Source of the DNA: a virus
Length of the DNA stretch: 64,000 nt
Virus record (IMG/VR): IMGVR_UViG_3300011115_000708
Location: 17,029 to 81,028 of that record
Strand: one strand, 5' to 3'
A program made the translations under genes and the position numbers. Under the pieces are notes generated by a model. That model was not told the DNA's origin. It was given only the letters and a program-made list of their open reading frames with translations, and did no database searches. Each line of letters begins with the position of its first letter. Positions within the stretch are counted from its first letter, which is position 1. Shown piece by piece: positions 20,464-58,738 of the stretch.

Positions 20464-21108
20464 ATGAAAAACAATGATCCAAAGGGTGCAATTGGCGACA
20501 CCAAATCACCGCTAGGGCTAATTCCATCCTGCGCGATGGAACAGACAGCGTGGGTACATAAACTTGGAGCCAAGAAATACGGCCCATACAACTGGCGCAA
20601 GACTGGTGTCTGCGCTACTACCTATGTCAATGCCATCATGCGGCATCTCAATGCCTGGAAGGACGGCGAAACACTAGATCCAGAGAGTGGTTTCTCCCAC
20701 CTGGCTCACATTGCCGCATCCTGCAATATCTTGATGGACGCAGACCACTGTGGAACTCTTGACGATGACCGAGACATTACCCCAGACAATCAGGTAGCAT
20801 TCGATGATTTAACTCCTGTGAAGTCGTTGCCAGACGAGATGTACGACTTCATGAAAGAAGGTGATCGTGTCTGTGAAGGTGATGAAGGGTATTCTGATAC
20901 TGGAGACTATTGGTTTGTCACCGCCTTCAAGACTAAGGACAACTACCGAGTTCCGAAAGGAAGAAAGTACCGCCGTATAAAGAATGGTGGATTAGAGAAA
21001 GAAAGCGTGTCTGCAGATGAATGCAAATGCGGTAGAATCAAGATCAAGCATTTCCTTTTAGGAGTAATCTGCGAAGACTGCGAAGTAAAATGGCAAGACC
21101 CATACTAA
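20464..21108 (+). CDS. dATP/dGTP diphosphohydrolase (DUF5664-like)
   Basis: K..LGLIP, GAKKYG.YNWR, A.MRHL..W..GE.LDPESG..HLAH. Confidence 0.85.
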   Translation: MKNNDPKGAIGDTKSPLGLIPSCAMEQTAWVHKLGAKKYGPYNWRKTGVCATTYVNAIMRHLNAWKDGETLDPESGFSHLAHIAASCNILMDADHCGTLDDDRDITPDNQVAFDDLTPVKSLPDEMYDFMKEGDRVCEGDEGYSDTGDYWFVTAFKTKDNYRVPKGRKYRRIKNGGLEKESVSADECKCGRIKIKHFLLGVICEDCEVKWQDPY

Positions 21109-21266
21109 TGAAACACCCATGCTCACTTTGCGGATCAACGAATTGGCCCGATCCAGAATCACTTTGTCCGTTATGCGATGGGCCTGCCGAACCTGGCCCA
21201 GATCCAGATGAGGACTGCCCAGACCACGACTCGCATGACGAAACTATTTATCAAGAAAATATATGA
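21108..21266 (+). CDS. Small Zn-ribbon protein (52 aa)
   Basis: CSLC...CPLC; coupled to neighbours by TAATG and ATGA; not in ORF track. Confidence 0.55.
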   Translation: MKHPCSLCGSTNWPDPESLCPLCDGPAEPGPDPDEDCPDHDSHDETIYQENI

Positions 21267-21574
21267 GTGATACACCAGAAACAGATAATCAATCATTCGT
21301 TGCAGAACATAACCTCGGTAAAGAACTATGCGTCGAGGCGTGGTTTTGTGAAATCATGGAACGCGAACGAGATGCGTGGAAATTGAACTCTCAATCAAAT
21401 CGTGATGAATATCATAGATTGATGATTGAAGTAGATGATCAGAATTTTCTAATTAAGAACATCATCAAATTACTGGAAATACCGGAGAATCTATCTAAGG
21501 CAGAACATGGTGCTAAAATACATAGAACCATCAAAGAACTGCTTGAGATAAAAAAATACTGCAAAGTACCCTAA
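21263..21574 (+). CDS. Hypothetical protein, MSDTPETD family
   Basis: MSDTPETD...MERERD coiled coil. Confidence 0.65.
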   Translation: MSDTPETDNQSFVAEHNLGKELCVEAWFCEIMERERDAWKLNSQSNRDEYHRLMIEVDDQNFLIKNIIKLLEIPENLSKAEHGAKIHRTIKELLEIKKYCKVP

Positions 21575-21580
21575 CACAAC

Positions 21581-21655
21581 CAGCGATGGACTTGATCGAA
21601 GTCGCCTCGACCGATAAACGAGGAAACGCAGGTAGAGAATCCTGCTCGCTGACCA
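21581..21655 (+). ncRNA. tRNA-like cloverleaf ending in ACCA (non-canonical; loop contains GAT)
   Basis: Stems CAGCGA/TCGCTG, GACTT/AAGTC, CCTCG/CGAGG, GCAGG/CCTGC; 75 nt; intergenic. Confidence 0.55.
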
Positions 21656-21689
21656 CTTTTATGAGAGAACAAAACAACGACGACGAACC

Positions 21690-22052
21690 ATGAACAATCC
21701 ACCAATGACCGAACCCGAAGCGAGAACCGTGGCACTCCTTCGGATGCACTTTGGCTGCACTTTCGGAAAACTCGCTATGTGCTGCCAAGCATTATGGGAT
21801 GCTAACCGCTGTGAGGAAATTACTGGATACCGATATGGCTCCCCAATGGGGCAAGCTATGGTAATCGCAATGGAAGATCACTTCCAGCTAGAACGCTGCG
21901 AGTCTGACAACATGAGCATGGGCGAGCAACGATGCGCAACTTGCGGACTGTCTCAGGTGGCAATTAGCCGATCGCACGATACGCCCAAGCAATGCGGGTT
22001 CTGCGGAGAGTTTGCTTCGATGTGGAATTCTATCAATCCGAACGAACCATGA
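21690..22052 (+). CDS. Hypothetical Zn-ribbon protein
   Basis: CATC...CGFC. Confidence 0.6.
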   Translation: MNNPPMTEPEARTVALLRMHFGCTFGKLAMCCQALWDANRCEEITGYRYGSPMGQAMVIAMEDHFQLERCESDNMSMGEQRCATCGLSQVAISRSHDTPKQCGFCGEFASMWNSINPNEP

Positions 22053-22375
22053 ACATTATCCTAAATAAAGAACAGGAAGACAGCATTGTTATAAGCTATC
22101 AAGAAGCTATTACTGCTGCAATTAAAGCTGCAGTAGATAAAGAACTTAGCTCAATTAGGAATGATTGGAAAATTCATGATCAAGTTCAACAATTTGTGCG
22201 AAAACAGTTTGGAGAAATGTTGAACTCAATTATTGCTGAAAAGCTAATAGAACGAGAGTTAGTTGAAGAACTGGTTAAAGAAAAACTAGCATCCTCAATT
22301 AAAAGTCGTCTTACCAAACAACTAAATGCTTTGTCAAAAGCAGAAATAGCAATTGAACACGAAGGAGATTTATGA
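22049..22375 (+). CDS. Hypothetical protein
   Basis: ATGA-coupled; AT-rich. Confidence 0.6.
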   Translation: MNIILNKEQEDSIVISYQEAITAAIKAAVDKELSSIRNDWKIHDQVQQFVRKQFGEMLNSIIAEKLIERELVEELVKEKLASSIKSRLTKQLNALSKAEIAIEHEGDL

Positions 22376-22638
22376 ATAAAGAAAACGCACATTTATACCT
22401 ACCGCTTGTGCAAGCACTGGCAGAAGGGAAAACGATTCAATTCAATCAAGGCGACGCATGGATAGACGCTGCAACTAATGCTGATTTCAAGTGGTTGGAC
22501 AGTCCTGACAATTACCGCGTGAAGCCAGAACCGCGCACATGGAGTTTCTGGTTAGATAAAAAAGGAAATTTGTGGCATTACCACATAACTCCACTTGCTG
22601 ATTGGAAACGCATCACCGTGCAGGAGGTGCTGGAATGA
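22372..22638 (+). CDS. Hypothetical phage protein
   Basis: LPLVQALAEGKTIQ...YRVKPEPR motif common in phages. Confidence 0.7.
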   Translation: MNKENAHLYLPLVQALAEGKTIQFNQGDAWIDAATNADFKWLDSPDNYRVKPEPRTWSFWLDKKGNLWHYHITPLADWKRITVQEVLE

Positions 22639-22835
22639 GCGACACGCCAGAAACAGATGCGGCAGAAATCGTTCTTTCTCCATTAGAAGGCGATCAGTGG
22701 GTTCGAGCTGACGTTGCCCGTAGGCTAGAACGCGAGCGTAATATAGCTTTTGCTGACATCAATTTGCTTTGCGACAAAGTATTGGAATTGAATACACTGC
22801 TGCAAGCACATGGAATTATCGAACACGAAAACTAA
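22635..22835 (+). CDS. Hypothetical protein, MSDTPETD family
   Basis: MSDTPETD...ARRLERERN. Confidence 0.65.
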   Translation: MSDTPETDAAEIVLSPLEGDQWVRADVARRLERERNIAFADINLLCDKVLELNTLLQAHGIIEHEN

Positions 22836-22836
22836 A

Positions 22837-23187
22837 ATGACTGACAAACAAATAAACCAACGGATCGCGGAAGCGTGTGGGTGGAAATTGAAATCAAATG
22901 GATTAAATCCCATGTGGTCTTGGCAAAATGAATCTCTAACTCACAGAATAAAGTGGGTAGCTAACAAAGAAATGGCTTCTCAAGGAGTATTGCCAAACTA
23001 TGTAAACGACCTAAACGCCATGCACGAAGTTCAGAAGGTGCTAACAAATACTCAATGGGGAGTTTATGTTAATTACCTAACTGCTACCACAAAACATGAT
23101 TACAGACGAGCGTGTGCTGAGGCATCCGCTCGCCAACGAGCAGAAGCCTTCCTAAGGACACTTGGAAGATGGGAGGAGGAAGTATGA
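22837..23187 (+). CDS. Phage protein (ABA-sandwich-like)
   Basis: INQRIAEACGW...PNY.NDLNAMHE...ARQRAEAFL; the repeat ends inside this gene. Confidence 0.6.
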   Translation: MTDKQINQRIAEACGWKLKSNGLNPMWSWQNESLTHRIKWVANKEMASQGVLPNYVNDLNAMHEVQKVLTNTQWGVYVNYLTATTKHDYRRACAEASARQRAEAFLRTLGRWEEEV

Positions 23188-23266
23188 ATGCGAAACATCA
23201 CGCTTTCAGGAGAATCAATACTTTCAGCATTTGCTGAAATCGACAAAACTTACCAAACACAAAACG

Positions 23267-23518
23267 ATGGAAATTGAACTACAAATCTGGAAATCAAAAG
23301 CAGAAGGTTATTTGCAAGACTACCTCGATGCTCTGAAGCGCATGGATAAGATCTCAGCCGATCGCGACCTCTGGAAAGCTGAAGCGACTCGCTGGCGCGA
23401 TATGTATCTCCAGTACGACGAAATGCTGGAGGGACAAGTGCAAGAATCAGTGAACAAGATCAACAAGATCTGGGAAGATCTCAATGAGCTCAAAAAGAAA
23501 GTCGAGGACGAACTGTGA
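23267..23518 (+). CDS. Coiled-coil hypothetical protein
   Basis: WKSKAE...DRD; homologous to 58779-59093. Confidence 0.55.
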   Translation: MEIELQIWKSKAEGYLQDYLDALKRMDKISADRDLWKAEATRWRDMYLQYDEMLEGQVQESVNKINKIWEDLNELKKKVEDEL

Positions 23519-24096
23519 GAATAAACCCAATACACGCGCAGCGTGACCTAGATAAAGTCAAGATGCAGTGGTGTAGGACTTGCAAGACTGATAAGCCTAC
23601 ATCGGCATTCTATAAGTGCCATCGCACCAAGTGCATGGACTGCAAGCGTGAGGAGAAACGACTGAAGCTACGCAACACAGTCAAAGACTTCTGTCACTCA
23701 TGCAGCACATGGAAACCAGAGACATCGTTCGGAGTAAATACCCGAGGTGATGAGCGACTGAAGACCTGCAAGTCATGCACAAAGGCAAAGGATGATCGGA
23801 TGCCAGCAAGCATTAGAGAGATCCAGATTAAGCCACTGCCGGTCATCTCTAAGGAGAATCGATGGCATCTGCACCAAGGTACTGTGACGCTCTTCATCGT
23901 AGGCCCAGGAGAGTTCGCCATGCACAAGTGTTCCGAGCCAGTTTACCGAGGAAAAATTGGCACTCCCGAGGAGCGGGAGATTGCCAAGACCGCGATTGCC
24001 ATGCTCAATGCCGACATCCAGAATAATCTTGACGCTGGGCCGGAAGCAATTCAAGAAACACTCATCAAGGCGAAAGCCAAACATCAAACAAAATGA
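23515..24096 (+). CDS. Multi-CxxC zinc-binding protein
   Basis: Four CxxC pairs; clear homologue of 59277-59933. Confidence 0.7.
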   Translation: MRINPIHAQRDLDKVKMQWCRTCKTDKPTSAFYKCHRTKCMDCKREEKRLKLRNTVKDFCHSCSTWKPETSFGVNTRGDERLKTCKSCTKAKDDRMPASIREIQIKPLPVISKENRWHLHQGTVTLFIVGPGEFAMHKCSEPVYRGKIGTPEEREIAKTAIAMLNADIQNNLDAGPEAIQETLIKAKAKHQTK

Positions 24097-25094
24097 CATG
24101 GATACTACCAAAGCAGTTACACACGTTAGCCTCTGTGCAGGGTACGGAGGCATTGATCTCGGACTCAACAGAGCAATCCCAAATTTACTCACAGTTGCTT
24201 TTAGTGAGATCGAAGCATTCGCCTGTGCAAACTTGGTCTCGAAAATGGAAGCGGGACTCATGGACTGCGCTCCTGTGTGGACGGATCTTAAAAACTTCCC
24301 ATACGAGCAATTTCACGGACGAGTGGACATCCTTTCTGGGGGTTACCCATGTCAGCCATTCTCAGCAGCAGGGAAGCGAGCGGGAGCAGACGACCCAAGA
24401 CACCTCTGGCCTTTTATCGCAGAAGGAATTCGACTTATGCGACCCAAGATGTGCTTCTTCGAGAATGTCGAAGGACACATTACGTTGGGACTCTCCAGCG
24501 TCATCAGCGACTTGGAAGAACTGGGTTACAAGGTGTCGTGGGGAGTATTCAGCGCGGCTGAATGCGGTGCGCCACACCAACGGAAGCGTGTCTTCATCTT
24601 GGCCTACTGCCAGCAGCAGGGATTGGAAGGATTCAGCGGGCATGGCAACCTCGTCAATCAACAAGGATGGATCGGACAGGAACCGGATCGATCAACTGCC
24701 AAGGGCAGTATTTCACGATCATGGGAGGTCGTTAGTTGGGCAGCCGACTGCAATGAGGATGACGAATGCTCAATCTGCGGACTTGAATACGCAGAAGAAT
24801 GCCAATGCTTTGGCCCAACGCAAGACGGCATTGAGTATGAAGAATTCGATGGGGTCTTGTATGGGCGACCAGAACAATTCTGGCCGAGCAGACCAACTCA
24901 GCCACAATTTCCAGGAGAACCACCAAGAGTCAATCAAGCTCAATCCACGTTGGGTAGAGACATTGATGGGACTTCCAGTAGGATGGACACTCCCGAGTTG
25001 TACACAACCTGTGACAATCGAACCGACGAGTTACGATTGCTTGGCAACGGAGTCGTGCCAGCAGTTACCGAGCGAGCATTTAGAACTCTTTTAA
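24093..25094 (+). CDS. Alternative-frame methyltransferase partner (beta chain) carrying motif IX
   Basis: 333-codon stop-free overlap; WPTASSRDWKD, DQLPRAV, LNPRWVETLMGLPVGWT; ATG overlaps the upstream stop. Confidence 0.7.
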   Translation: MTWILPKQLHTLASVQGTEALISDSTEQSQIYSQLLLVRSKHSPVQTWSRKWKRDSWTALLCGRILKTSHTSNFTDEWTSFLGVTHVSHSQQQGSEREQTTQDTSGLLSQKEFDLCDPRCASSRMSKDTLRWDSPASSATWKNWVTRCRGEYSARLNAVRHTNGSVSSSWPTASSRDWKDSAGMATSSINKDGSDRNRIDQLPRAVFHDHGRSLVGQPTAMRMTNAQSADLNTQKNANALAQRKTALSMKNSMGSCMGDQNNSGRADQLSHNFQENHQESIKLNPRWVETLMGLPVGWTLPSCTQPVTIEPTSYDCLATESCQQLPSEHLELF

Positions 25095-25114
25095 CTGAAC
25101 TACTCAATGACTGA
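24098..25114 (+). CDS. C5 cytosine DNA methyltransferase, catalytic (alpha) chain lacking motif IX
   Basis: Motif I LCAGYGG, IV GYPCQPFS, VI ENV, VIII QRKRVF, X LLGNGVVP. Confidence 0.9.
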   Translation: MDTTKAVTHVSLCAGYGGIDLGLNRAIPNLLTVAFSEIEAFACANLVSKMEAGLMDCAPVWTDLKNFPYEQFHGRVDILSGGYPCQPFSAAGKRAGADDPRHLWPFIAEGIRLMRPKMCFFENVEGHITLGLSSVISDLEELGYKVSWGVFSAAECGAPHQRKRVFILAYCQQQGLEGFSGHGNLVNQQGWIGQEPDRSTAKGSISRSWEVVSWAADCNEDDECSICGLEYAEECQCFGPTQDGIEYEEFDGVLYGRPEQFWPSRPTQPQFPGEPPRVNQAQSTLGRDIDGTSSRMDTPELYTTCDNRTDELRLLGNGVVPAVTERAFRTLLTELLND

Positions 25115-25388
25115 ATCACAACTAGAAAAGAAGGTCTGTGCATGGGCCAAGGACTGTGGCATCTCGACGCTAAAGCTCTCTGGGCCAAATGACCGAGGAA
25201 AAGCAGACCGGATGTTCATGAAGCATGGTAAGATCATGTTCTTGGAGTTCAAAGCAGCAGGTAAGAAACCAACTGCACTTCAGCAACGATTCCTCAAGCA
25301 ACGCGTGGACGATGGGTTCGTCGCTGGATGGACTGACGACTATGTTGAGGCAATCGACATCCTCTGCAAATTCTTCCTGTATGAGTGA
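25107..25388 (+). CDS. VRR-NUC nuclease
   Basis: ESQLE...GKADR...FLEFK..GKKPTALQ. Confidence 0.85.
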   Translation: MTESQLEKKVCAWAKDCGISTLKLSGPNDRGKADRMFMKHGKIMFLEFKAAGKKPTALQQRFLKQRVDDGFVAGWTDDYVEAIDILCKFFLYE

Positions 25389-26730
25389 AGATTTCAAACC
25401 ATTCCCATACCAACCTGCGATGGTCGATTGGTGTGTCGATAATTCATCCTCGGCATTGTTCGTATCTCCAGGCAAGGGCAAGACAGTCTGCACACTCGCG
25501 GCGATCGACCGATTGATGCGGTCTGGCGAAAGCCGAGGTGCGCTCATCATCGCCCCGCTGCGCGTCTGCTCGATTACTTGGCCAAACCAAGTCGAGCGTT
25601 GGAACCACTCAAAACGGTTCCGCGTTGCCCACCTGCGGACGAAAGAAGGGATGCAAGCATGGCAAGATGGGTCTGCTGATATCTACCTCATCAACTCCGA
25701 GCAACTGATCGCCAAAGCACCGATCCTGTTCAAGGGCAAGGTGCTGCCAGTAGACACTTTGGTCATCGACGAGTTAAGCCTCGCCAAGAACCCAACTAGC
25801 AAGCGGTTCAAGACGCTGCGGAAGTACCTGCCGATGTTCAAGCAGAGAATCGGGTTGACCGGCACTCCTGTGCCGAACAATTATCTCGACCTGTACGGAC
25901 AGATCCGTCTGCTCGATGACGGCAAGCGACTCGGAAAGTCATTTTCTGAGTACAAGAGTAAGTTCTTTTACCCTGCGGACTATATGGGCTATACCTTCAA
26001 ACTTAGCCCAGGAGCGAAGGAGGAGATCGATGCGCTCCTCAGCGACCTCTGCTTGGTCATCATTGGCGACGAGAGCGACCTTCCAGCATCCTCGGTGGTC
26101 GATGTGCCAGTAACCCTCCCAACAGACGCTAGGAAGGCGTACAGGACGCTTGAGAAGGAGTTGTTGATCGAGATCAAGGACAAGGAGGTTGTCGCCCTCA
26201 CAGCAGCAACCTTGTGCAACAAACTGCTCCAGATCACCGGAGGCGCGGTCTACGACGACGAGAAATCGGTCGTGCCTATCCACACTGCCAAGATCGAGGT
26301 ACTGCGGAAGATCCGCAAGCAGCACAAGGACGAGCCGATCCTCGTCTTGACTGCGTTCAAGCATGAGTCTGCTCGGATCTTGGCTGAGATCGAAGGAGCC
26401 GAGATGTTCGATGAACGCCGGTTGCAGGACTGGCAGGATGGCAAGATCAAGACATGGGTGGCAGACCCTCGTAGTTTGTCACATGGGATCGATGGACTCC
26501 AGAAGTCCGGAAGGATAGCAGTCTGGTTTACGCTGACGTACTCCAACGAGACGTACATCCAGACCAATGCTCGATTGATCCGTACTGGTCAGTCTGCTGA
26601 GACGCTGATCTACCGGCTAACCGCGACCAACACGATCGACGATGCAGTAGCCGAGGCACTGCGGGAGAAGACCAACACGCAGAGCGGTCTGATGAGTGCG
26701 CTCAAGGCACTCCAGACGATGCAGGGATAA
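25381..26730 (+). CDS. SNF2-family helicase
   Basis: PGKGKT, IDELS, LTGTP, HGIDGLQ, QTNARLIRTGQ; ATG at 25381. Confidence 0.9.
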   Translation: MSEDFKPFPYQPAMVDWCVDNSSSALFVSPGKGKTVCTLAAIDRLMRSGESRGALIIAPLRVCSITWPNQVERWNHSKRFRVAHLRTKEGMQAWQDGSADIYLINSEQLIAKAPILFKGKVLPVDTLVIDELSLAKNPTSKRFKTLRKYLPMFKQRIGLTGTPVPNNYLDLYGQIRLLDDGKRLGKSFSEYKSKFFYPADYMGYTFKLSPGAKEEIDALLSDLCLVIIGDESDLPASSVVDVPVTLPTDARKAYRTLEKELLIEIKDKEVVALTAATLCNKLLQITGGAVYDDEKSVVPIHTAKIEVLRKIRKQHKDEPILVLTAFKHESARILAEIEGAEMFDERRLQDWQDGKIKTWVADPRSLSHGIDGLQKSGRIAVWFTLTYSNETYIQTNARLIRTGQSAETLIYRLTATNTIDDAVAEALREKTNTQSGLMSALKALQTMQG

Positions 26731-26790
26731 AAGGCTGAGATCGCCCTAAGACGATCTCGAAAGCTCATTTCACACATGGTGGATGAGCAG

Positions 26791-26838
26791 AAAAAATGCA
26801 GGGGCAGTCACCTATCACCCGATAGAACCACCCCTGCA
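26791..26838 (-). terminator. Intrinsic terminator at the convergent junction
   Basis: TGCAGGGG/CCCCTGCA stem followed by T6 on the minus strand. Confidence 0.6.
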
Positions 26839-26913
26839 CCCATGAACATGAAACAAGAAACAGAAACGCTAGTCTCCAAAACGGAAGATACTCGGATCTA
26901 GCCTCTTGTCAAC

Positions 26914-27387
26914 TTAAACAGTAAAGCGGATCACCGAGCGGATCTTGCTCGCATCCCTGCGCTTCCTGTAGACTCCATCTCCCTCTCTATCACCACCAGA
27001 GTTAGTGTTGCCTTCCACGGTCTGAACCATGCCGTTCTTGTCGATGTCGGCAACGCAAATTCCTATGTGCGAGAAGGTAAATACGACGATGTCTCCTCTG
27101 CGGATGTCGTTCTTGTGGGGCTTATGCAACTTGACCGAATCATCGACCGATAAGCACCATTTCTCGAAATCCCATGCTCCAGCAGTCTCTGGGCGCGGGA
27201 ACGTGTATTTCTCGCCACCGAGAGAATGCTCTACGCACCAGCATACGAATGCGGCACACCATGCCCAAGGCCCAGAAGGCAACCATGTCGAGCGTTGGTA
27301 TTCCTCGATCTTGGCCCCGCCATTGGTTTTCGTCTCACGCACACCCACCTGCGATTCCGCGGTCTTCGCTAGTTGTTCAGCAATCAT
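26914..27387 (-). CDS. CHAP-domain endolysin
   Basis: WCAAFV, GDIVVF, HIG, EGNT. Confidence 0.85.
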   Translation of the reverse strand: MIAEQLAKTAESQVGVRETKTNGGAKIEEYQRSTWLPSGPWAWCAAFVCWCVEHSLGGEKYTFPRPETAGAWDFEKWCLSVDDSVKLHKPHKNDIRRGDIVVFTFSHIGICVADIDKNGMVQTVEGNTNSGGDREGDGVYRKRRDASKIRSVIRFTV

Positions 27388-27614
27388 GCCTTTCGGTAAA
27401 GGTTGGCAAGACTACCGTCAATCGAAATTTTCCGTTTAGTGAGCATTCCCTGCGCGACAAGACGAGCAAGTTGCTGCTGTGCCGTATGTCTGTTAATCCG
27501 AGTTTTGACGATGTACTCAGCAAGTGTGAACTCATCATCCATCCTGTCATGGCTGATGTGCTGAGAGATTGCAAACTCAAGGCTGGATAATGCTTTTTGC
27601 GTTTTAGTTTTCAT
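27384..27614 (-). CDS. Small winged-HTH-like protein
   Basis: FTLAEY...TAQQQLARLVAQGML. Confidence 0.5.
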   Translation of the reverse strand: MKTKTQKALSSLEFAISQHISHDRMDDEFTLAEYIVKTRINRHTAQQQLARLVAQGMLTKRKISIDGSLANLYRKA

Positions 27615-27705
27615 ATGTCAATGTTTTGGCGATTTGTTTACACGTCTGTAATAACGTATAAAGAATTGGACGAAAAGTGGGTGTATTCGGGTATTGTATC
27701 ACACG

Positions 27706-28437: not shown

Positions 28438-28736
28438 GATTTACTGATTTTGTTCATTAACGTATCTAACGCGGGAAAGAAAATGTTCTCGATTGAACGA
28501 ACGATTGGTTCCTCTTCGATCCGTTCAGACCATGAATGCCCTGCTACAGCTAGTGATGCGTGTAGCATCTCATGCCTAATCGTGTCAAGGAGCATCTTGT
28601 CGCTCTTTAGGCACTCGCGGGAGATTCTGATCTCCTTATCGTCGAACGACATCTCACCATAGTCGTCCATCTTCTTGATGACGATACGGAATCGAATCCC
28701 ACCTATACAGATGGATCTTGGTGGCTTGAATGCCAC
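28434..28736 (-). CDS. Small HExxH metalloprotease-like protein
   Basis: YGE...I.I...DTIRHEMLHA. Confidence 0.65.
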   Translation of the reverse strand: MAFKPPRSICIGGIRFRIVIKKMDDYGEMSFDDKEIRISRECLKSDKMLLDTIRHEMLHASLAVAGHSWSERIEEEPIVRSIENIFFPALDTLMNKISKS

Positions 28737-28737
28737 A

Positions 28738-28899
28738 TCAGTCCTTCTTAAAGGCGTTGATCAAGCCAACGAGTGCAGTACCACCGGCAATGATCGCAGC
28801 AGCCTGTGCAGGTTGAAGGATGATGCCGAACGCAGTGGTGATCTGGATAAGTCCGCGCCATGTGGACTCCATTTTCAAGTAATCGATCAAGGTCTTCAT
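28738..28899 (-). CDS. Holin-like membrane protein (53 aa)
   Basis: MKTLIDYLKMESTWRGLIQ...INAFKKD; homologue of 11293-11457; not in ORF track. Confidence 0.75.
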   Translation of the reverse strand: MKTLIDYLKMESTWRGLIQITTAFGIILQPAQAAAIIAGGTALVGLINAFKKD

Positions 28900-51100: not shown

Positions 51101-53338
51101 TCACTCTCCTATCTGAACATTGATCCAGTAGCGATTCGTTTTCTTCGTTCGATCCATGCCAGAGACGGTCACGCCGCTATTCGGTTGCTTCGATAGCTTG
51201 GCAAGTGCCGAGCCACAAGCACCAGACCATGTGAACAACTGACGCGCCTGGTCACGCACTGGTGAGTCGATCGCAAGCAACCTGGACTCGATCTCAAGTG
51301 CTGAGAACTCGCGGGGCAAGTCCATCCAGTTCGAGTTGATCATGAGATCCATGAGCCTGTTCGCTGGCGAGTGGACATCAAGTGATTCACTCAACTCTGG
51401 GTCACGCCACGCCTTGATTCCCGATCGCGAGTCCTTCAGATCATCTGGGATCTGCCAGTTGATCAACTCATTTGCGAAGTATGGCATCTCTGCTCGCAGG
51501 TCATCCTGCAACTGCTTACGACCATCTGAGGTTGACGTATCGATCGGCATTATGACCGGAGCACAATGCAAGATGATAATCTTGTCGCTAAGGTCGTTGT
51601 CGATCGGTGGGATGATCTGCATTGCCTCGGGTGTATCATTGCAGCAGACCATCACGCTCCACACTGGACGGCATGAGATCGCAGAGACGTTCCGCTTACG
51701 CATCTCGATGATGTGTGGGTACATCGCCTCCTTGAACGCAGCGCCAAAGTTGCGACGAGCGCGGATGTCGGTAGATCCAACGCAGTCATCGACCAAGAGT
51801 AACTCGGCCCCAACAAGGTTGTCGTTCCACATGATCCCACCACCCCATGCGGCGTGTGGGTTGGCAGTGCGCCCACCGAGCATCTGTGCGACGATCCAAG
51901 CGAGGAGTGACTTTCCAGAGTTTACTTCACCGGCAACTACTAGCATCGGTGCTGGGATATGCTGGTGCGATCGGACTGCTTGGTAGCGTGTTGATAGCCA
52001 TGAGATGAAGACGATGAGTGCCTGTGGATCTGGGAACGCCTGTATGATGATATCATCGATCAGTGACGTTTGACCAGCGACCGGCTGAGGGATGAGTGCC
52101 TCGGAGGTGATGAGGATCTGGCGACCATCGTGGTCACGCATGAGTCCGCGTTGATGCCCTGCCATCGCACCATACCACTCAACCGATCCATCGAGTTCAC
52201 GGTTGAGGATCGCCTCGGTCACCGCGTCCCGAAGATCCGCTGGCTTTCCAAACTGCGGAGCAAGGTGGCGAGTGAGTCCAGTGACGACCGGCGACCTCTT
52301 GCCATAGACCGTGTAATGGTTGTTATTCTTGACCAAGTACTTGCCGCTAGGGGTATCATAGAAAATGTCCTCAGCAGGAAATGTACGGCGATCTGCCGGA
52401 TCAGAAACTGGATCGATTGGCATCGCGATCGCGGTCGTGATACGATTTTCACGCTGTTCGCTGGCAGCCTTCTTCAGCGTCCTCGATGGTTTCCATCCGT
52501 TGTTCGACGCATGATGCCAGAGTGTGCCGATCGTAAACTTCTCAAGACGATCCTTGAACTTCTCGGCATACTCGCCTGGTCGATCCTCTGGCCAATGATT
52601 GACGAGGATTGCAGTTGCATCCTCACCGAAATGATTCCAAGCAGCGGAGCAGATCTCAAGCCAGATTGAGTAATCTTGCCGCGGGATTACCGAGATCATG
52701 TCCTTGAGATCATCAAGGGTAATGTCGATCGATGAGTCGTGTAGGATCATCGACTGCTCGTCCTTGACGATCGGTTGCATCTCCTTTGCCTCACCATCAC
52801 GCAACCATGCGGTCGGATCGTAGGACACGAAGCAAAGTCTGATCGGATCTTTACAGCTCTGGTCGATCGTGAGCGATAGCTTTGCGAAATACTCCTCAGC
52901 TGCGAGAAAGCACTCCTTGTGAGTCATTGGATCATCCTTAATGCGGATGATACCTTTAACGCCCTTGCCGGATGGTGAGGTAAATACCCCAACCGAGTGA
53001 GGATCGTTGATGATAATGTTCCGCATCTCCTCAATGCTCCATCCAATGTTGTCCTTTGCGTCCAGATCGATCTGTAGCAAGCCCGAGTGGGTGAAGCGAC
53101 CTTCGCTCGCAGCGTTCTTACGCTTGCCGGTCACAAAACCACTGAGCGAGACGCATGGTAATGCACGTTTGAGGTTCTCAGCCTCTAGTTTAAGGCCATC
53201 AGCAATGTGCTGTCGGATCGATAGGATGCGAGGTGCAAACTCATCCGAGCGAATTGCATCGAACAGGTCTGTTAGACTGACAGTAGCGGCAGCAGACCAT
53301 GCCTGGGCGTTGGTGTAATAGTCGATTTCTGGATTCAT
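51101..53338 (-). CDS. Primase-helicase (BT4734/VirE-N-like AEP, PriCT-2, SF3-like ATPase)
   Basis: K..LP, HSGLLQIDLD, SPSG.GVK, D.SCKD..RLCF.SYD; Y..WL.I; GEVNSGKS. Confidence 0.85.
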   Translation of the reverse strand: MNPEIDYYTNAQAWSAAATVSLTDLFDAIRSDEFAPRILSIRQHIADGLKLEAENLKRALPCVSLSGFVTGKRKNAASEGRFTHSGLLQIDLDAKDNIGWSIEEMRNIIINDPHSVGVFTSPSGKGVKGIIRIKDDPMTHKECFLAAEEYFAKLSLTIDQSCKDPIRLCFVSYDPTAWLRDGEAKEMQPIVKDEQSMILHDSSIDITLDDLKDMISVIPRQDYSIWLEICSAAWNHFGEDATAILVNHWPEDRPGEYAEKFKDRLEKFTIGTLWHHASNNGWKPSRTLKKAASEQRENRITTAIAMPIDPVSDPADRRTFPAEDIFYDTPSGKYLVKNNNHYTVYGKRSPVVTGLTRHLAPQFGKPADLRDAVTEAILNRELDGSVEWYGAMAGHQRGLMRDHDGRQILITSEALIPQPVAGQTSLIDDIIIQAFPDPQALIVFISWLSTRYQAVRSHQHIPAPMLVVAGEVNSGKSLLAWIVAQMLGGRTANPHAAWGGGIMWNDNLVGAELLLVDDCVGSTDIRARRNFGAAFKEAMYPHIIEMRKRNVSAISCRPVWSVMVCCNDTPEAMQIIPPIDNDLSDKIIILHCAPVIMPIDTSTSDGRKQLQDDLRAEMPYFANELINWQIPDDLKDSRSGIKAWRDPELSESLDVHSPANRLMDLMINSNWMDLPREFSALEIESRLLAIDSPVRDQARQLFTWSGACGSALAKLSKQPNSGVTVSGMDRTKKTNRYWINVQIGE

Positions 53339-53350
53339 GTTTTTACGTCA

Positions 53351-53441
53351 AAAAGAAGCCCCGCCACTTGTGATCCCCACTGGATTTTCTTCAGTGGCAA
53401 GTGACGAGGCAAAATGTATAAATTTGCTATGCAGGGATCAT
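53351..53441 (-). promoter_or_regulatory. Putative attenuator upstream of the primase
   Basis: Terminator-like stem with U-tract, competing TGATCCC/GGGATCA pairing and a 4-codon uORF. Confidence 0.45.
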
Positions 53442-53644
53442 TCTGCAACTTTGCGTTGGGCAAGGTTTCACCGAGAAACCAGAAAAACGTCTCCAGAGCA
53501 AGAAAAATCGTCAATTAGTCATGGAATCCATTGATTTTGCAACAGGATGCGAAAAAATCGCACCATAACGTATTTTTTTCTTGCGATCGTTGGAAATCGG
53601 ATCATTGTGCCTTCCGTGACCGAGAAACGGCACATAGAAACGAC

Positions 53645-53905
53645 ATGAAAAAGAGAAAATACTTCAAAATTCGCACCCGCGAGGATGACCCGAAAGTCAT
53701 CAAGCGGATTGATAACCACCATACCAGTTACACGTTCGAGCATCGGACTGTGACAGGTCAATACTACCGTGTGCATCCCAGCATCGCTGACCATGAGGCA
53801 CTCTGCATGATGCAACACCGAGTAGAGAAGTTCGCACCTGCTATTGGCAATGGTGTGATCATCCGAGCAGATGTTCTTAAAGCCCTTGACGCAGAACCGG
53901 TATGA
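53645..53905 (+). CDS. Hypothetical protein
   Basis: First gene of the divergent operon; ATGA coupled to the next gene. Confidence 0.55.
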   Translation: MKKRKYFKIRTREDDPKVIKRIDNHHTSYTFEHRTVTGQYYRVHPSIADHEALCMMQHRVEKFAPAIGNGVIIRADVLKALDAEPV

Positions 53906-54114
53906 TTGACGAAAAACGCAAGCTGGAACAACTCTACGACGAGTATGCTGATCGCCAGAAGCGAGCAGACCGCGAAGAGACGTTTTACGACATAGCGTAC
54001 ACGCTCTTCGTCGTAGCAGTTTTCATTGCATTGGCATTCATCTTCCGAGATGAGATCAAGGCAATAAAGAATCTCCCCACAACAACAACAACAACAACAA
54101 CAACACAACAATAA
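53902..54114 (+). CDS. Small membrane protein
   Basis: One hydrophobic helix. Confidence 0.5.
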   Translation: MIDEKRKLEQLYDEYADRQKRADREETFYDIAYTLFVVAVFIALAFIFRDEIKAIKNLPTTTTTTTTTQQ

Positions 54115-54122
54115 GTAAGCAT

Positions 54123-54848
54123 ATGATCCTTAAAGACAAACAAAGCAGCGAGTTCATCTCACACCCAGAAACCGACGGCATGGTGAAAGCCGTGATCGTC
54201 GATATTACACCTCTCAAAGAAGTGGATACACAATACGGAGTGAAGGAGGTATTCCAGATCGTATTTGAATCGGAGGTCGAGAATGACGAGGGCAAACGAT
54301 TTTGCGTCTGGTCACGCCGATTTACTCCTTCGCTTAGTGACCGTGCGAATCTTCGCAAAGAACTCAAGAAGATCATGGGCCGAGACTTCACCGCTCTCGA
54401 ACTAAAGGGATTCGACATCGAGGCACTCATCGGATTTGGAGTCAACCTCATTATCCAGCATGAGATCGGATCGAACGGCAACACCTACGCGGTGATCTCG
54501 TTCATCGCCCCAGACAAGTCTGGATCGACGCTGAAGGCATCCGGTGCGTATACCCGAGTTAAAGACCGCGAGGTTAAGGACTACGATAATCAGTCTAAGT
54601 CTGCTGCACCGGCAGCTAAGAAAGCAGCACCTGCTGCCAAGGCAGTTGGATGGCAGTCGGTGATCGTCCACGTTGGACGGTTTAAGGGTAAGGCACTCGG
54701 AGATATTCCAGAGGACGGTGTGATGGCATTGCTCGACCACTGGTTGCCAACTGCTGATGTTGCAAACGGCGACGACGCAGCACTTGCCAAGGCACTCAAG
54801 GAGTTGGCAGTCATCCTAGATCCAGGTACACAAGATCTCGGATTCTGA
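54123..54848 (+). CDS. Putative SSB (OB-fold) replication protein
   Basis: AVIVDI, RFTPSL...ANLRK.L....GRDF, FDIE.LIG, YA.I; acidic-aromatic C-terminus. Confidence 0.65.
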   Translation: MILKDKQSSEFISHPETDGMVKAVIVDITPLKEVDTQYGVKEVFQIVFESEVENDEGKRFCVWSRRFTPSLSDRANLRKELKKIMGRDFTALELKGFDIEALIGFGVNLIIQHEIGSNGNTYAVISFIAPDKSGSTLKASGAYTRVKDREVKDYDNQSKSAAPAAKKAAPAAKAVGWQSVIVHVGRFKGKALGDIPEDGVMALLDHWLPTADVANGDDAALAKALKELAVILDPGTQDLGF

Positions 54849-54915
54849 GCCATGAGTCGTCGGACTCTGTAAGCGATGACAGGCGGGAAAGACCGCCACT
54901 TTACTTCCCAAGAAC

Positions 54916-55296
54916 ATGACCATAGCAGAAAAGATCGCAATGATGAAGGGTGGCACACCACCATCGAAACTACTCTCAAAGCCTATGCTGGTATCCTCGT
55001 CGCCAGCACCGGAGAAAAAAAAGGTCGAGGAGATAGTGGACGAGCGCAGCTTGTCGCAGACGATGGGCGAAGGGATCGACCACACGCCAGTAAACCCACA
55101 GATCGGTCAGAACGAGTGGAACGAGGCACTGAACGCGTTCAAGAGCGAGATGTGCATCGTGAGCGACCCGAAAGACCCAGAGATGGCGTGGATCGGCTTG
55201 CGGCTCAATGGCAAGGAGGAGAGACCGCTCCTGCTGTACCAACTGCCATACTGGGAGCATCCGCTGACGGTTCGCCCAAGCAACCAACCGTTCTAA
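54916..55296 (+). CDS. Hypothetical protein
   Basis: ATG with A-rich leader; ends in QPF. Confidence 0.5.
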   Translation: MTIAEKIAMMKGGTPPSKLLSKPMLVSSSPAPEKKKVEEIVDERSLSQTMGEGIDHTPVNPQIGQNEWNEALNAFKSEMCIVSDPKDPEMAWIGLRLNGKEERPLLLYQLPYWEHPLTVRPSNQPF

Positions 55297-55449
55297 CCAT
55301 CACTGATCGACTCAAAGCATTGGCGCAGCGAGCAAGGAGTAAATGTCCAGACGAATGCTGCCAGACATGCTACAACAAACACTGCCGAGTACTACTAAAA
55401 ACCTGTTGCGTCTGCACAGGTGACATCAACCTAAAACAACGATAAATCT

Positions 55450-56151
55450 ATGAACACAGAAACCATGATACTGACAGGTGAGGGCTACGCTCTCACGATC
55501 ACCCCAGAAGCTGAGATCCAAAAGACTGCGCTGCTCGACGTTGCTCGCGCAGTCCAGAACGTTCGCTCCAACGACGAGTCCGCTGACGCAGCATTCCATA
55601 TGCGCTCGTTGGCACAGATGCGGATCGCGGTCGATAAGAGCCGCAAGGAGATCAAGGAGCCGGTGCTGCGGATTGGCAAACTCATCGACCAGACTGCCAA
55701 GAACTTCTTGGCTGAGATCGAGGACGAGGAGGAACGCATCCGAGGACTGATCGGGGATCATGCTGCCGAGATGCTTCGACTCAAGAAAGAAGCCGAGGAG
55801 AAAGAACGCCTTGCATTTGAGGCTGAGATGACCGCTAGGGCGATTGCAGAGTCCGGTGGGATTGCTGCTGTCATCGAGGCTAGAGACGCGCTACAGGACA
55901 AATTGAAGGCATCTGAGGAGGTTGCCAGCACCAATGTCGCCCAAGGAGTTCGGTTCGTCTGGGATTTCGAGGTCACCTCGGTCGAAGACTTGATGCGGTT
56001 TGCTCCAGACCTAGTGAAGGTCGAGCCAAAGCGCAGAGAGATCATTGCATGGCTCAAGGGACTTGAGGAGAACGAAGACCGCGATGCTGCCGCAATCGCA
56101 TCCCAAGTTGGAATTGTGGCGTACAAAATCCCAAGTATCTCAACACGATGA
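55450..56151 (+). CDS. Coiled-coil phage protein
   Basis: RKEIKEP....K.ID and VR.VWDFEV motifs. Confidence 0.65.
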   Translation: MNTETMILTGEGYALTITPEAEIQKTALLDVARAVQNVRSNDESADAAFHMRSLAQMRIAVDKSRKEIKEPVLRIGKLIDQTAKNFLAEIEDEEERIRGLIGDHAAEMLRLKKEAEEKERLAFEAEMTARAIAESGGIAAVIEARDALQDKLKASEEVASTNVAQGVRFVWDFEVTSVEDLMRFAPDLVKVEPKRREIIAWLKGLEENEDRDAAAIASQVGIVAYKIPSISTR

Positions 56152-56477
56152 ATACAGAAACAATCAAGATGGATAAGCCAATGAAATTCCCACAACGCTG
56201 GTATTTGATCTTCGTTCGCCCACCAGGATCGAAAGTCTGGACTCAGCACCAGAAAAAGGTTGACGGTGGTCATTGGATTCCATGGACTCACAGCAATCCG
56301 CTGAAAGTAGCGGATGAGGCAAACATGATCTTTATGAGTACCGGTTGGTCAGTGAACGTCATCGACATCGACCACGAGGTTGAAGTCCATGACGAGCAGA
56401 CACTGCACTTCTCAGAGGAGACGTATGAGCAAATCGTAATGATGGATAACGCAAAACTAAACGCATGGATACACTGA
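56148..56477 (+). CDS. Hypothetical protein
   Basis: ATGA coupling. Confidence 0.55.
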   Translation: MNTETIKMDKPMKFPQRWYLIFVRPPGSKVWTQHQKKVDGGHWIPWTHSNPLKVADEANMIFMSTGWSVNVIDIDHEVEVHDEQTLHFSEETYEQIVMMDNAKLNAWIH

Positions 56478-56620
56478 GCATAATTGGAAGAGATCCGATC
56501 CTTACTTACAAGATCACCCAGTTGATCGGCAAACGAGCAGAACGCGCTAGAGTACGCCAACAGCGTATCGATGCTATTCTATCACCACTAGCAACCATCA
56601 AACGCATCCTTGGACTATGA
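56465..56620 (+). CDS. Hypothetical protein (51 aa)
   Basis: Its stop overlaps the ATG that begins repeat copy 2; not in ORF track. Confidence 0.45.
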   Translation: MDTLSIIGRDPILTYKITQLIGKRAERARVRQQRIDAILSPLATIKRILGL

Positions 56621-56771
56621 AACACCCATGCTCACTTTGCGGATCAACGAATTGGCCCGATCCAGAATCACTTTGTCCGTTATGCGATGGGCCTGCCGAA
56701 CCTGGCCCAGATCCAGATGAGGACTGCCCAGACCACGACTCGCATGACGAAACTATTTATCAAGAAAATAT

Positions 56772-57083
56772 ATGAGTGATACACCAGAAACAGATAATCA
56801 ATCATTCGTTGCAGAACATAACCTCGGTAAAGAACTATGCGTCGAGGCGTGGTTTTGTGAAATCATGGAACGCGAACGAGATGCGTGGAAATTGAACTCT
56901 CAATCAAATCGTGATGAATATCATAGATTGATGATTGAAGTAGATGATCAGAATTTTCTAATTAAGAACATCATCAAATTACTGGAAATACCGGAGAATC
57001 TATCTAAGGCAGAACATGGTGCTAAAATACATAGAACCATCAAAGAACTGCTTGAGATAAAAAAATACTGCAAAGTACCCTAA
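56772..57083 (+). CDS. Hypothetical protein, MSDTPETD family (duplicate)
   Basis: Identical to 21263-21574. Confidence 0.65.
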   Translation: MSDTPETDNQSFVAEHNLGKELCVEAWFCEIMERERDAWKLNSQSNRDEYHRLMIEVDDQNFLIKNIIKLLEIPENLSKAEHGAKIHRTIKELLEIKKYCKVP

Positions 57084-57089
57084 CACAAC

Positions 57090-57164
57090 CAGCGATGGAC
57101 TTGATCGAAGTCGCCTCGACCGATAAACGAGGAAACGCAGGTAGAGAATCCTGCTCGCTGACCA
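57090..57164 (+). ncRNA. tRNA-like cloverleaf (duplicate)
   Basis: Identical to 21581-21655. Confidence 0.55.
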
Positions 57165-57198
57165 CTTTTATGAGAGAACAAAACAACGACGACGAACC

Positions 57199-57561
57199 AT
57201 GAACAATCCACCAATGACCGAACCCGAAGCGAGAACCGTGGCACTCCTTCGGATGCACTTTGGCTGCACTTTCGGAAAACTCGCTATGTGCTGCCAAGCA
57301 TTATGGGATGCTAACCGCTGTGAGGAAATTACTGGATACCGATATGGCTCCCCAATGGGGCAAGCTATGGTAATCGCAATGGAAGATCACTTCCAGCTAG
57401 AACGCTGCGAGTCTGACAACATGAGCATGGGCGAGCAACGATGCGCAACTTGCGGACTGTCTCAGGTGGCAATTAGCCGATCGCACGATACGCCCAAGCA
57501 ATGCGGGTTCTGCGGAGAGTTTGCTTCGATGTGGAATTCTATCAATCCGAACGAACCATGA
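57199..57561 (+). CDS. Hypothetical Zn-ribbon protein (duplicate)
   Basis: Identical to 21690-22052. Confidence 0.6.
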   Translation: MNNPPMTEPEARTVALLRMHFGCTFGKLAMCCQALWDANRCEEITGYRYGSPMGQAMVIAMEDHFQLERCESDNMSMGEQRCATCGLSQVAISRSHDTPKQCGFCGEFASMWNSINPNEP

Positions 57562-57884
57562 ACATTATCCTAAATAAAGAACAGGAAGACAGCATTGTTA
57601 TAAGCTATCAAGAAGCTATTACTGCTGCAATTAAAGCTGCAGTAGATAAAGAACTTAGCTCAATTAGGAATGATTGGAAAATTCATGATCAAGTTCAACA
57701 ATTTGTGCGAAAACAGTTTGGAGAAATGTTGAACTCAATTATTGCTGAAAAGCTAATAGAACGAGAGTTAGTTGAAGAACTGGTTAAAGAAAAACTAGCA
57801 TCCTCAATTAAAAGTCGTCTTACCAAACAACTAAATGCTTTGTCAAAAGCAGAAATAGCAATTGAACACGAAGGAGATTTATGA
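57558..57884 (+). CDS. Hypothetical protein (duplicate)
   Basis: Identical to 22049-22375. Confidence 0.6.
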   Translation: MNIILNKEQEDSIVISYQEAITAAIKAAVDKELSSIRNDWKIHDQVQQFVRKQFGEMLNSIIAEKLIERELVEELVKEKLASSIKSRLTKQLNALSKAEIAIEHEGDL

Positions 57885-58147
57885 ATAAAGAAAACGCACA
57901 TTTATACCTACCGCTTGTGCAAGCACTGGCAGAAGGGAAAACGATTCAATTCAATCAAGGCGACGCATGGATAGACGCTGCAACTAATGCTGATTTCAAG
58001 TGGTTGGACAGTCCTGACAATTACCGCGTGAAGCCAGAACCGCGCACATGGAGTTTCTGGTTAGATAAAAAAGGAAATTTGTGGCATTACCACATAACTC
58101 CACTTGCTGATTGGAAACGCATCACCGTGCAGGAGGTGCTGGAATGA
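57881..58147 (+). CDS. Hypothetical protein (duplicate)
   Basis: Identical to 22372-22638. Confidence 0.7.
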   Translation: MNKENAHLYLPLVQALAEGKTIQFNQGDAWIDAATNADFKWLDSPDNYRVKPEPRTWSFWLDKKGNLWHYHITPLADWKRITVQEVLE

Positions 58148-58344
58148 GCGACACGCCAGAAACAGATGCGGCAGAAATCGTTCTTTCTCCATTAGAAGGC
58201 GATCAGTGGGTTCGAGCTGACGTTGCCCGTAGGCTAGAACGCGAGCGTAATATAGCTTTTGCTGACATCAATTTGCTTTGCGACAAAGTATTGGAATTGA
58301 ATACACTGCTGCAAGCACATGGAATTATCGAACACGAAAACTAA
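58144..58344 (+). CDS. Hypothetical protein, MSDTPETD family (duplicate)
   Basis: Identical to 22635-22835. Confidence 0.65.
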   Translation: MSDTPETDAAEIVLSPLEGDQWVRADVARRLERERNIAFADINLLCDKVLELNTLLQAHGIIEHEN

Positions 58345-58345
58345 A

Positions 58346-58738
58346 ATGACTGACAAACAAATAAACCAACGGATCGCGGAAGCGTGTGGGTGGAAATTGA
58401 AATCAAATGGATTAAATCCCATGTGGTCTTGGCAAAATGAATCTCTAACTCACAGAATAAAGTGGGTAGCTAACAAAGAAATGGCTTCTCAAGGAGTATT
58501 GCCAAACTATGTAAACGACCTAAACGCCATGCACGAAGTTCAGAAGGTGCTAACAAATACTCAATGGGGAGTTTATGTTAATTACCTAACTGCTACCACA
58601 AAACATGATTACAGACGAGCGTGTGCTGAGGCATCCGCTCGCCAGAAAGCAGAAGCATTTCTAAAGACATTTGGAGAATGGGAGGAGGAAGCAGAAGAAT
58701 GTTTACAAGACTTCCTCGATTCTTTCAGCATTTGCTGA
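58346..58738 (+). CDS. Phage protein (ABA-sandwich-like), variant C-terminus
   Basis: Identical to the 22837 gene up to 58644, then diverged. Confidence 0.6.
   Translation: MTDKQINQRIAEACGWKLKSNGLNPMWSWQNESLTHRIKWVANKEMASQGVLPNYVNDLNAMHEVQKVLTNTQWGVYVNYLTATTKHDYRRACAEASARQKAEAFLKTFGEWEEEAEECLQDFLDSFSIC

Follow-up and report, generated by a model that had tools for sequence, protein, structure and literature searches.

The 81,028-bp contig of the IMG/VR record IMGVR_UViG_3300011115_000708 very probably arose when two separate phage genomes in the virome of one water sample were wrongly connected during assembly, through a nearly identical cassette of ~2 kb. Phage A, probably a short-tailed type, is ~44.8 kb, and phage B, putatively a long-tailed type, is 35,509 bp (33,481 bp plus one copy of the cassette, R); each closes on itself. 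We hold this interpretation with high confidence on the basis of unequal depths of the two parts with R at their sum, A–A and B–B joins in relatives, the size ceilings of those relatives, and a CCGG signature. The window analysed here is the 64,000-nucleotide stretch at positions 17,029 to 81,028 of the record, and coordinates refer to it unless the contig is named. The A genes were drawn from the flanks of the window and from 17 kb of contig upstream of it.

Two gene sets joined at a direct repeat

The initial annotation had described exact direct repeats 35,509 bp apart that enclose a full phage gene set, and this description was borne out. A 2,028-bp exact direct repeat (R) occupies 21108–23135 and again 56617–58644, an offset of 35,509 bp. 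To the left of R, identity is at once ~25%, which is background. To the right, the sequences following copies 1 and 2 are ~88% identical with indels as far as 23273/58774, and farther on 23566–24078 and 59322–59861 are ~67–68% identical. The window is divided as follows.

1–21107, + strand: A-left, with PHROG/Pfam matches, a Logan contig at 25.8x and no CCGG
21108–23135, + strand: R copy 1, exactly identical to 56617–58644
23136–56616, mixed strands: unique part of B (33,481 bp), with Logan contigs at 66.6x and 64.3x and 73 CCGG
56617–58644, + strand: R copy 2, every letter as in copy 1
58645–64000, mixed strands: A-right, the rest of phage A, with no CCGG and a gene order found in the relatives L037 and L038
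63315–64000, + strand: contig-end repeat of the contig start (end overlap)

The last 686 bp of the contig are 92% identical to its first 678 bp, without a single difference over the final 110 bp. This imperfect overlap indicates that phage A closes on itself and that the assembler entered a second allele; it is also a second sign of a path running round a closed graph. In L037, the A-right genes continue into homologues of the first genes of the contig.

Protein matches in A upheld the claim that the flanks carry a second, unrelated gene set. The following genes lie in A-left.

4829–11248, + strand: 2,139-aa protein
11454–12005, + strand: endolysin (PHROG/Pfam)
12877–13773, + strand: Sak4 (PHROG/Pfam)
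14875–16545, + strand: helicase (PHROG/Pfam)
16912–17661, + strand: Cas4-type exonuclease (PHROG/Pfam)
17658–19937, + strand: primase/helicase (PHROG/Pfam)
20464–21108, + strand: dGTP-diphosphohydrolase/MazG-like gene (PHROG/Pfam)

PHROG/Pfam matches also identified virion genes of A, namely a tail fibre, TerL, a portal, a major head protein and an SU10-type adaptor (PF24175, scoring 52 bits where the cut-off is 27). Synteny extends over the structural module between A and Rhizobium phage RHph_N65 (48.7 kb), which drew matches from 12 A proteins and from no B protein, and A-left is 85% identical at the nucleotide level to an independent contig, L033. The scan of A proteins turned up no tape measure, though many A proteins match nothing at all. 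The adaptor and the TerL relatives favor the earlier assignment of A as a podovirus, which is better backed than the siphovirus label given to B but was not confirmed.

The gene set of B comprises TerS, TerL, portal, protease, major head protein, TMP-like, tail, endolysin, helicase, primase and C5 methyltransferase genes, which are arranged as follows.

23515–24096, + strand: Cys-rich protein
24093–25114, + strand: C5 methyltransferase
25225–26730, + strand: helicase
26914–27387, − strand: endolysin
29401–36932, − strand: tail and TMP-like genes
40059–40994, − strand: major head protein
listed between the major head protein and the portal, − strand: protease
42862–44547, − strand: portal
44593–45957, − strand: TerL
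listed after TerL, − strand: TerS
51101–53338, − strand: primase
53337–56620, + strand: small replication-module genes

The tape-measure match in B was weak and partial (phrog_1538, E 3e-8, residues 72–178), other tail-protein matches were weak, and the tail genes gave no Pfam matches. As these tape-measure and tail-protein matches were its only basis, the siphovirus label was not confirmed. Megablast against 50,697 phage records returned no match for A and none for B. As had been noted, the contig lacks an integrase: no Phage_integrase (PF00589) or Resolvase (PF00239) domain was found anywhere in its 81 kb. The SSBs attributed to the two gene sets were not recovered, with no canonical SSB (PF00436) in A or in B. 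A prophage-like or satellite nature of B was rejected, as no recombinase is present and B carries a full, autonomous set of genes.

Depth, gene order and genome size

Depth was taken as the per-contig k-mer depth of independent Logan contigs from the probable source run, X1, a viral-particle metagenome, with contigs compared over 12108–32107. A-left was represented by a contig of 29,023 bp at 25.8x (7 mismatches over 9 kb), and B by contigs of 10,866 bp at 66.6x (0 mismatches) and 5,883 bp at 64.3x. The shorter B contig enters R, and its loose end is identical to 56588–56616. The interior of R (21365–23135) was at 93.9x, matching the sum of 25.8 and 66, and a bubble within R (21286–21365) had branches at 73.6x and 22.8x that mirror the depths of B and A. 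The Logan contigs break at the borders of R, and both the A-left and the B-right contigs run into it. The first kb of B beyond R was at 82.5x versus ~66x elsewhere in B, which could stem from uneven coverage of AT-rich sequence or from k-mers common to other strains. The initial annotation had proposed a depth profile over A, B and the repeat as a check, and the values obtained (25.8x, 64–67x and 93.9x) are as a chimera predicts, the parts being unequal and the common segment equal to their sum. Because A and B differ in depth, the contig is not one uniform replicon. The proposed counter-case of a true fused replicon, evenly covered throughout, is refuted as the only form present, the A:B depth being 1:2.6.

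In runs X2–X4, which belong to two further studies of seawater and river water, R and B were at 2–13x and A-left was almost bare. A fused replicon would be expected to show A-left at the cover of B, but gaps in contigs of such low depth prove nothing, and these runs were not counted as evidence.

The 2.6-fold difference in depth between A and B in the source run also contradicts the idea that the contig is a single genuine 81-kb phage with two virion modules, or that B is an integrated element or satellite with R as its attachment repeat. Carrier and supposed element differ in copy number (A:B 1:2.6), integrase and resolvase domains are absent, the genes of B form a complete autonomous set, the CCGG signature changes sharply at R, and the relatives of each part are separate, at 41–50 kb and 32.6–36.5 kb. 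To our knowledge, a 2-kb coding 'att site' is without precedent. Although the CheckV completeness of 100% and the direct repeats flanking B are in its favor, we consider this explanation hardly credible.

A real cointegrate is arithmetically compatible with the depths. Circular or concatemeric B could have recombined with A at R during co-infection in a Campbell-type event that needs no integrase, giving A-left–R–B–R–A-right molecules alongside free B. Values of 25.8x, 66x and 94x would fit if all A were in cointegrates and ~40x of B were free, R being the sum of A and B in both models. Moreover, the topology is exactly that produced by one homologous crossover between replicons sharing R, and recombination functions (Sak4 and the Cas4-type exonuclease) are present on the A side. 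We nevertheless regard such a molecule as unlikely. At 81 kb it exceeds every relative (at most 50 kb for A and at most 36.5 kb for B), so neither capsid should package it, and the source is a viral-particle metagenome. The bubble in R at 22.8x and 73.6x suggests that the A and B copies are not truly identical, in which case their perfect identity would be an artefact of a node written twice. In addition, A-left is joined directly to A-right in relatives of A, and positive evidence for cross-linkage of A and B is lacking; on this balance, coexisting cointegrates and free B are improbable. It is very unlikely that part of the A population consists of A::B cointegrates, formed as replicative recombination intermediates of co-infecting short- and long-tailed phages during the exchange by which the cassette spreads.

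An assembly mis-join would have the following origin. In the short-read graph, R would be collapsed into one node with A-left and B-right as entries and B-left and A-right as exits, B forming a loop that hangs on the path of A. The assembler presumably went from A-left into R, once round B, through R again and out into A-right. Both copies of R would then be identical by construction because one node was written twice, and the apparent insertion flanked by perfect direct repeats would be a by-product of the graph walk.

Gene order in relatives bears directly on these joins. L037, from a 43,106-bp metagenome contig, carries helicase, Cas4, primase, MazG and R1-like genes followed by homologues of 58779 to 63987, with no B gene in the stretch; the other 26.4 kb of its contig approximates the remaining 25.6 kb of A, so that the absence of B there is a matter of length arithmetic only. 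L038 carries primase, MazG, R1′, R5′, R3′ (83% aa) and R7′, and then homologues of 59005–60354. A-left is thus joined to A-right through a short cassette in both. For B, homologues of 53531–56151 lie 0.3–2.5 kb upstream of homologues of 25107–26730 on the same strand in at least 15 IMG/VR contigs, some of which have R1-, R6- or R7-like ORFs between the two blocks. The position of B-right genes directly upstream of B-left genes indicates that B closes across the cassette. Each part is therefore complete alone, with its cut ends adjacent in relatives.

Sizes point the same way. Among 80 contigs with A-type TerL, 17 measured 41.3–49.9 kb and none was longer, while the longest contigs among 80 B-type portal loci were 32.6–36.5 kb. 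The 81-kb contig equals the sum of an A-type and a B-type genome.

Composition also divides the contig. CCGG was absent from contig positions 4364–38135 and from A-right, with about 100 occurrences expected in A; for A-right alone, 17.7 were expected. B had 73 against 84 expected, a normal rate, and the signature switches sharply at R. Tetranucleotide profiles of A-right correlated with A at 0.74–0.82 and with B at 0.48–0.56, although segments of A and of B are themselves well correlated with one another, so that the support is weak. The avoidance of CCGG in A and the C5 methyltransferase in B hint that the two phages respond differently to a single restriction system of their host. The reading favored in the initial annotation, a chimera assembled from two co-occurring phages that have a recently exchanged cassette in common, is therefore supported by depth, by synteny and size ceilings in relatives, and by CCGG avoidance confined to A.

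The shared cassette

R contains about seven small ORFs.

starting exactly at 21108, + strand: R1, 52-aa CxxC...CxxC peptide
21263–21574, + strand: R2
21690–22052, + strand: R3
21992–22375, + strand: R4
22372–22638, + strand: R5
22602–22835, + strand: R6
22810–23187, + strand: R7

The ORFs gave no Pfam or PHROG matches, and the cassette gave no tRNA (ARAGORN) and no Rfam match. R4 had no relative among viral contigs or metagenome contigs. The Atlas leads for R3 were all below threshold (best 0.87, RNHCP), and we drew no functional conclusion from them. A distant search of the cassette region matched nothing but a methyltransferase.

The left border of R is the R1 start codon, whereas at the right border identity grades from 100% to 88% to 67%. 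Proteins of A and B are homologous only in the cassette and in the two genes after it, where 58779–59093 (A) corresponds to 23162–23518 (B) at 37% aa identity and 59277–59933 (A) to 23515–24096 (B) at 54%; the A gene at 59277–59933 had no relative among viral contigs. R is thus a near-identical block in otherwise non-homologous genomes, bordered by a gene start on one side and a diverged homologous flank on the other. The gene content of the slot differs between close relatives of A and also between those of B and, as judged from these sequences, the R slot is a hypervariable slot of the replication/early region in both phages. That two unrelated, co-occurring phages carry one and the same block of small genes points to a shared host and a recent exchange. 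The cassette was probably passed by recombination between A and B within that host, with the left crossover at the R1 start codon and the right one inside the 3′ end of R7, which is homologous.

Relation to known systems and meaning

Repeats are known to yield 'fragmented assemblies and chimeric contigs', and mosaic phage genomes have unitigs in common (Phables, PMC10104058). The present contig resembles such cases in that a common sequence collapses and two genomes come to lie on one contig far over family size. Some IMG/VR contigs have been described as 'considerably longer than expected' and judged probable assembly artefacts, with the same genome repeated 2–6.8 times and detectable through k-mer frequency (CheckV, PMC8116208). 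Unlike those cases, in which one genome is repeated, two unrelated genomes are joined here. The duplication amounts to no more than 2.5% of the contig, and a k-mer test therefore misses this chimera. An element between direct repeats of shared sequence also recalls Campbell-type integration or a cointegrate, but here there is no integrase, the 'att' is 2 kb of coding sequence and the parts are unequally abundant.

The main value of these findings is a warning on data quality, as an IMG/VR record scored 100% complete consists of two genomes. Taxonomy, host prediction and genome-size statistics drawn from the 81-kb record would be misleading, and the record needs to be divided into one genome of ~44.8 kb and another of 35.5 kb.

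What is left for biology is ordinary phage mosaicism, in which a block of small genes, probably exchanged very recently, occupies a hypervariable slot. It shares with known mosaics a near-identical block in unrelated genomes, a left border at a gene start, a diverged right flank and a variable slot; the R copies may not be truly identical here, since one graph node was probably written twice. Nothing essential differs, and the case is a fresh example between a probably short-tailed and a putatively long-tailed aquatic phage. The remainder is modest but real, and concerns two unrelated phages of one freshwater or marine community.

The two phages and their shared cassette

The record is classed as linear and scored by CheckV as 100 for completeness, and the whole 81,028-bp contig was read besides the window. 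The initial annotation had described exact direct repeats 35,509 bp apart that enclose a full phage gene set, with a second, unrelated set in the flanks. Both points were borne out: sequence comparison found 21108-23135 to equal 56617-58644 letter for letter over 2,028 bp (offset 35,509 bp), and gene annotation separated two sets of genes on either side of this cassette, termed R.

Gene sets of the two phages
Phage B (enclosed segment, 23136-56616): TerS, TerL, Mu-type portal, protease, major head protein, TMP-like and tail proteins; endolysin, helicase, primase, C5 methyltransferase
Phage A (flanks and the 17 kb upstream of the window): tail fibre, TerL, portal, major head protein, SU10-type adaptor, 2,139-aa protein; endolysin, Sak4, helicase, Cas4-type exonuclease, primase/helicase, dGTP-diphosphohydrolase-like protein

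As had been claimed, no integrase or resolvase domain was present in the 81-kb contig; the claimed SSBs were not confirmed, as no canonical SSB domain was found in it. No cultured phage was close to A or B at the DNA level. The TerL of A had 48-51% identity to its counterparts in Microcystis phage Mae-Yong1326-1 and Rhizobium phage RHph_N65, two phages of ~48.7 kb, and the 48.7-kb RHph_N65 matched 12 A proteins in the same order and 0 B proteins. The MazG-like gene of A just before the cassette (20464-21108) matched PF18909 (dATP/dGTP diphosphohydrolase N-terminal domain, 99.7 bits) and phrog_801. Members of this diphosphohydrolase family occur in phages whose purines are modified; among the proteins scanned, none was of PurZ type.

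R starts exactly at the ATG of R1, a small CxxC...CxxC ORF, and to its left identity drops immediately to background. In copy 1 the gene before R ends in a stop codon that overlaps this ATG; in copy 2 the overlapping stop belongs to a different gene. To the right, diverged homology continues at ~88% with indels over ~130 bp and then at 67-68% (23566-24078 versus 59322-59861). The last cassette ORF is 96% identical (aa) between the two contexts, differing only at the C-terminus; for the two genes beyond it the figures are 37% and 54%. The only other A-B protein match was weak (26% over 131 aa, E 1.4e-5), between proteins without assigned function. No recognisable function was found for the R genes, and neither ARAGORN nor Rfam (E up to 1) returned anything for a tRNA-like RNA at 21581-21655 within R.

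Read depth and the probable path of the assembly

The depth profile proposed in the initial annotation was drawn from Logan contigs of run X1, a 2018 viral metagenome, in an assembly independent of that of IMG/VR. These contigs were aligned to 12108-32107. X1 contained every word sampled from the junction region and was the probable source of the contig.

Depth of X1 Logan contigs across the first junction
A-left (aligned 12108-21169): 29,023 bp, 25.8x
B-right, entering R at 21108: 5,883 bp, 64.3x
R interior (21365-23135): 1,771 bp, 93.9x
First kb of B after R: 1,017 bp, 82.5x
B (from 24097): 10,866 bp, 66.6x

The unaligned portion of the B-right contig matches 56588-56616, the end of B that precedes the second copy of R. 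Depths of A and B were 2.6-fold apart, and R was at their sum (25.8 + 66 ~ 92). A single fused replicon as the only form would need equal depths of A and B and is therefore refuted. A real A::B cointegrate sub-population accompanied by surplus B would also place R at the summed depth, and the profile fits this equally as well as two free genomes, so that depth alone has no power between them; we nevertheless consider such a sub-population very unlikely. A bubble within R at 21286-21365 had a reference branch at 73.6x and another at 22.8x. As these values mirror the depths of B and A, they suggest that A's own copy of R differs from that of B there, and that the perfect identity of the two copies in the contig comes from one graph node written twice.

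R is a collapsed segment common to two genomes of different abundance. In the graph, R would be entered from A-left and B-right and exited to B-left and A-right, making B a loop on the path of A. SPAdes-type assemblers resolve simple loops by traversing the loop once, and a path-extending assembler would in this way write A-left-R-B-R-A-right. The first 678 bp of the contig align with its last 686 bp (63315-64000) at 92%; the final 110 bp are identical, and the indels lie in a GATAGCGC[CG]GAGAGCGT-type repeat region and T-runs. To our knowledge, real terminal repeats are identical. The imperfect overlap looks like a path round the closed graph of A into a second allele. It indicates that the sample contains phage A as two strains, and it is a second hint that a graph with strain variation was walked greedily. 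Chimeric contigs caused by repeats have been described in mosaic phage populations, as have shared unitigs (PMC10104058), and over-long IMG/VR contigs have been described as probable assembly artefacts (PMC8116208). The latter are self-concatenations, whereas here two different genomes are joined; such a chimera would escape the k-mer test for over-long contigs.

Gene order, genome size and CCGG sites

Relatives of A were found by searching metagenome contigs with its MazG-like protein, and two loci were informative. L037, part of a 43,106-bp contig, contains a helicase, Cas4, a primase, three small ORFs, MazG and an R1-like ORF, followed by homologues of the A-right genes 58779, 59005, 59277 (74% aa), 59845, 60363 (89%), 61662 (80%), 63030 (92%) and 63670, and then of the eight genes with which the 81-kb contig begins. 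A-left therefore joins A-right via a tiny cassette, and A-right joins the start of A, with no B gene between. The rest of that contig is 26.4 kb versus 25.6 kb of A unaccounted for, which by size arithmetic leaves no room for B. L038 (6.4 kb) contains a primase, MazG and the cassette counterparts R1', R5' (53% aa), R3' (83% aa) and R7' (40% aa), and beyond these homologues of 59005, 59277 (76%) and 59845; L033/L036 have the same start. R-type genes are thus native to the A lineage, where they form a variable set in the stretch from MazG to A-right. R3 itself (120 aa, Cys-rich; 21690-22052) is 83% identical to L038 3940-4302, where its cassette neighbours are only 40-53% identical and changed in order; single small genes seem to move within the slot without the genes beside them.

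At least 15 IMG/VR contigs, retrieved with the helicase of B, have homologues of 53531-56151 directly upstream of those of 25107-26730; the two groups share a strand and are separated by 0.3-2.5 kb, and in three contigs the gap holds R1-, R6- or R7-like ORFs. The two ends of B are thus joined across the cassette slot. A 5.1-kb contig (IMGVR_UViG_3300020044_012479) has the B-type helicase twice, inverted (118-1473 and 4380-3001), probably a fold-back assembly or amplification artefact.

Among the best 80 IMG/VR loci for the A-type TerL, 17 contigs were 41.3-49.9 kb and none was longer; for the B-type portal, the longest contigs of the best 80 loci were 32.6-36.5 kb. Resolved alone, A is ~44.8 kb (81,028 - 35,509 - ~686) and B 35,509 bp. 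Each fits the size of its own family, and the 81-kb contig is the sum of both.

Contig positions 4364-38135 have no CCGG site, with ~97 expected across the whole of A-left (contig 1-38135). The only 26 sites of A-left lie at contig 1671-4363, in AAA-ATPase/VWA-type genes that look like a recent acquisition. A-right has none versus 17.7 expected, bringing the CCGG-free DNA of A to ~39 kb; B has 73 versus 84 expected, and R has one. A-left and A-right have a selective history in common that is absent from B, and the switch is at the repeat. Depth, synteny, size ceilings and CCGG content support the reading that the initial annotation had preferred, an assembly chimera of two phages sharing a cassette, and the nested arrangement is in all probability not a real feature.

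The C5 methyltransferase gene of B (24093-25114) is a presence/absence polymorphism. Contigs of runs X2 and X4 jump from 24091/2 to 25106/7 (1,014 bp), omitting it, and of two IMG/VR relatives it is absent from L004 and present in L005. In each of the four runs this region has spikes in depth and numerous loose ends, which indicates that it is common to other phages. The gene looks frameshifted in the contig, possibly from collapsed variants: frame 24098-25114 encodes the Pfam DNA_methylase N-terminal half, and frame 24093-25094 the PHROG methyltransferase match (residues 70-299).

Probable exchange between the two phages

In the source run both A-left and B-right contigs enter R, which is at summed depth; at least ~1.8 kb of it is therefore present in near-identical form in both phages. 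The cassette slot is hypervariable in both lineages. The sharp left border at a start codon and the graded right border in homologous genes are the classic footprint of recent recombination in mosaic phages, in support of the claim that co-occurring phages with a presumably shared host recently exchanged the cassette. Recombinational exchange between mosaic phages is an already known kind of event, and its recent occurrence here implies a common host. The absence of CCGG from ~39 kb of A and the methyltransferase gene of B may represent two strategies against one CCGG restriction system of that host.
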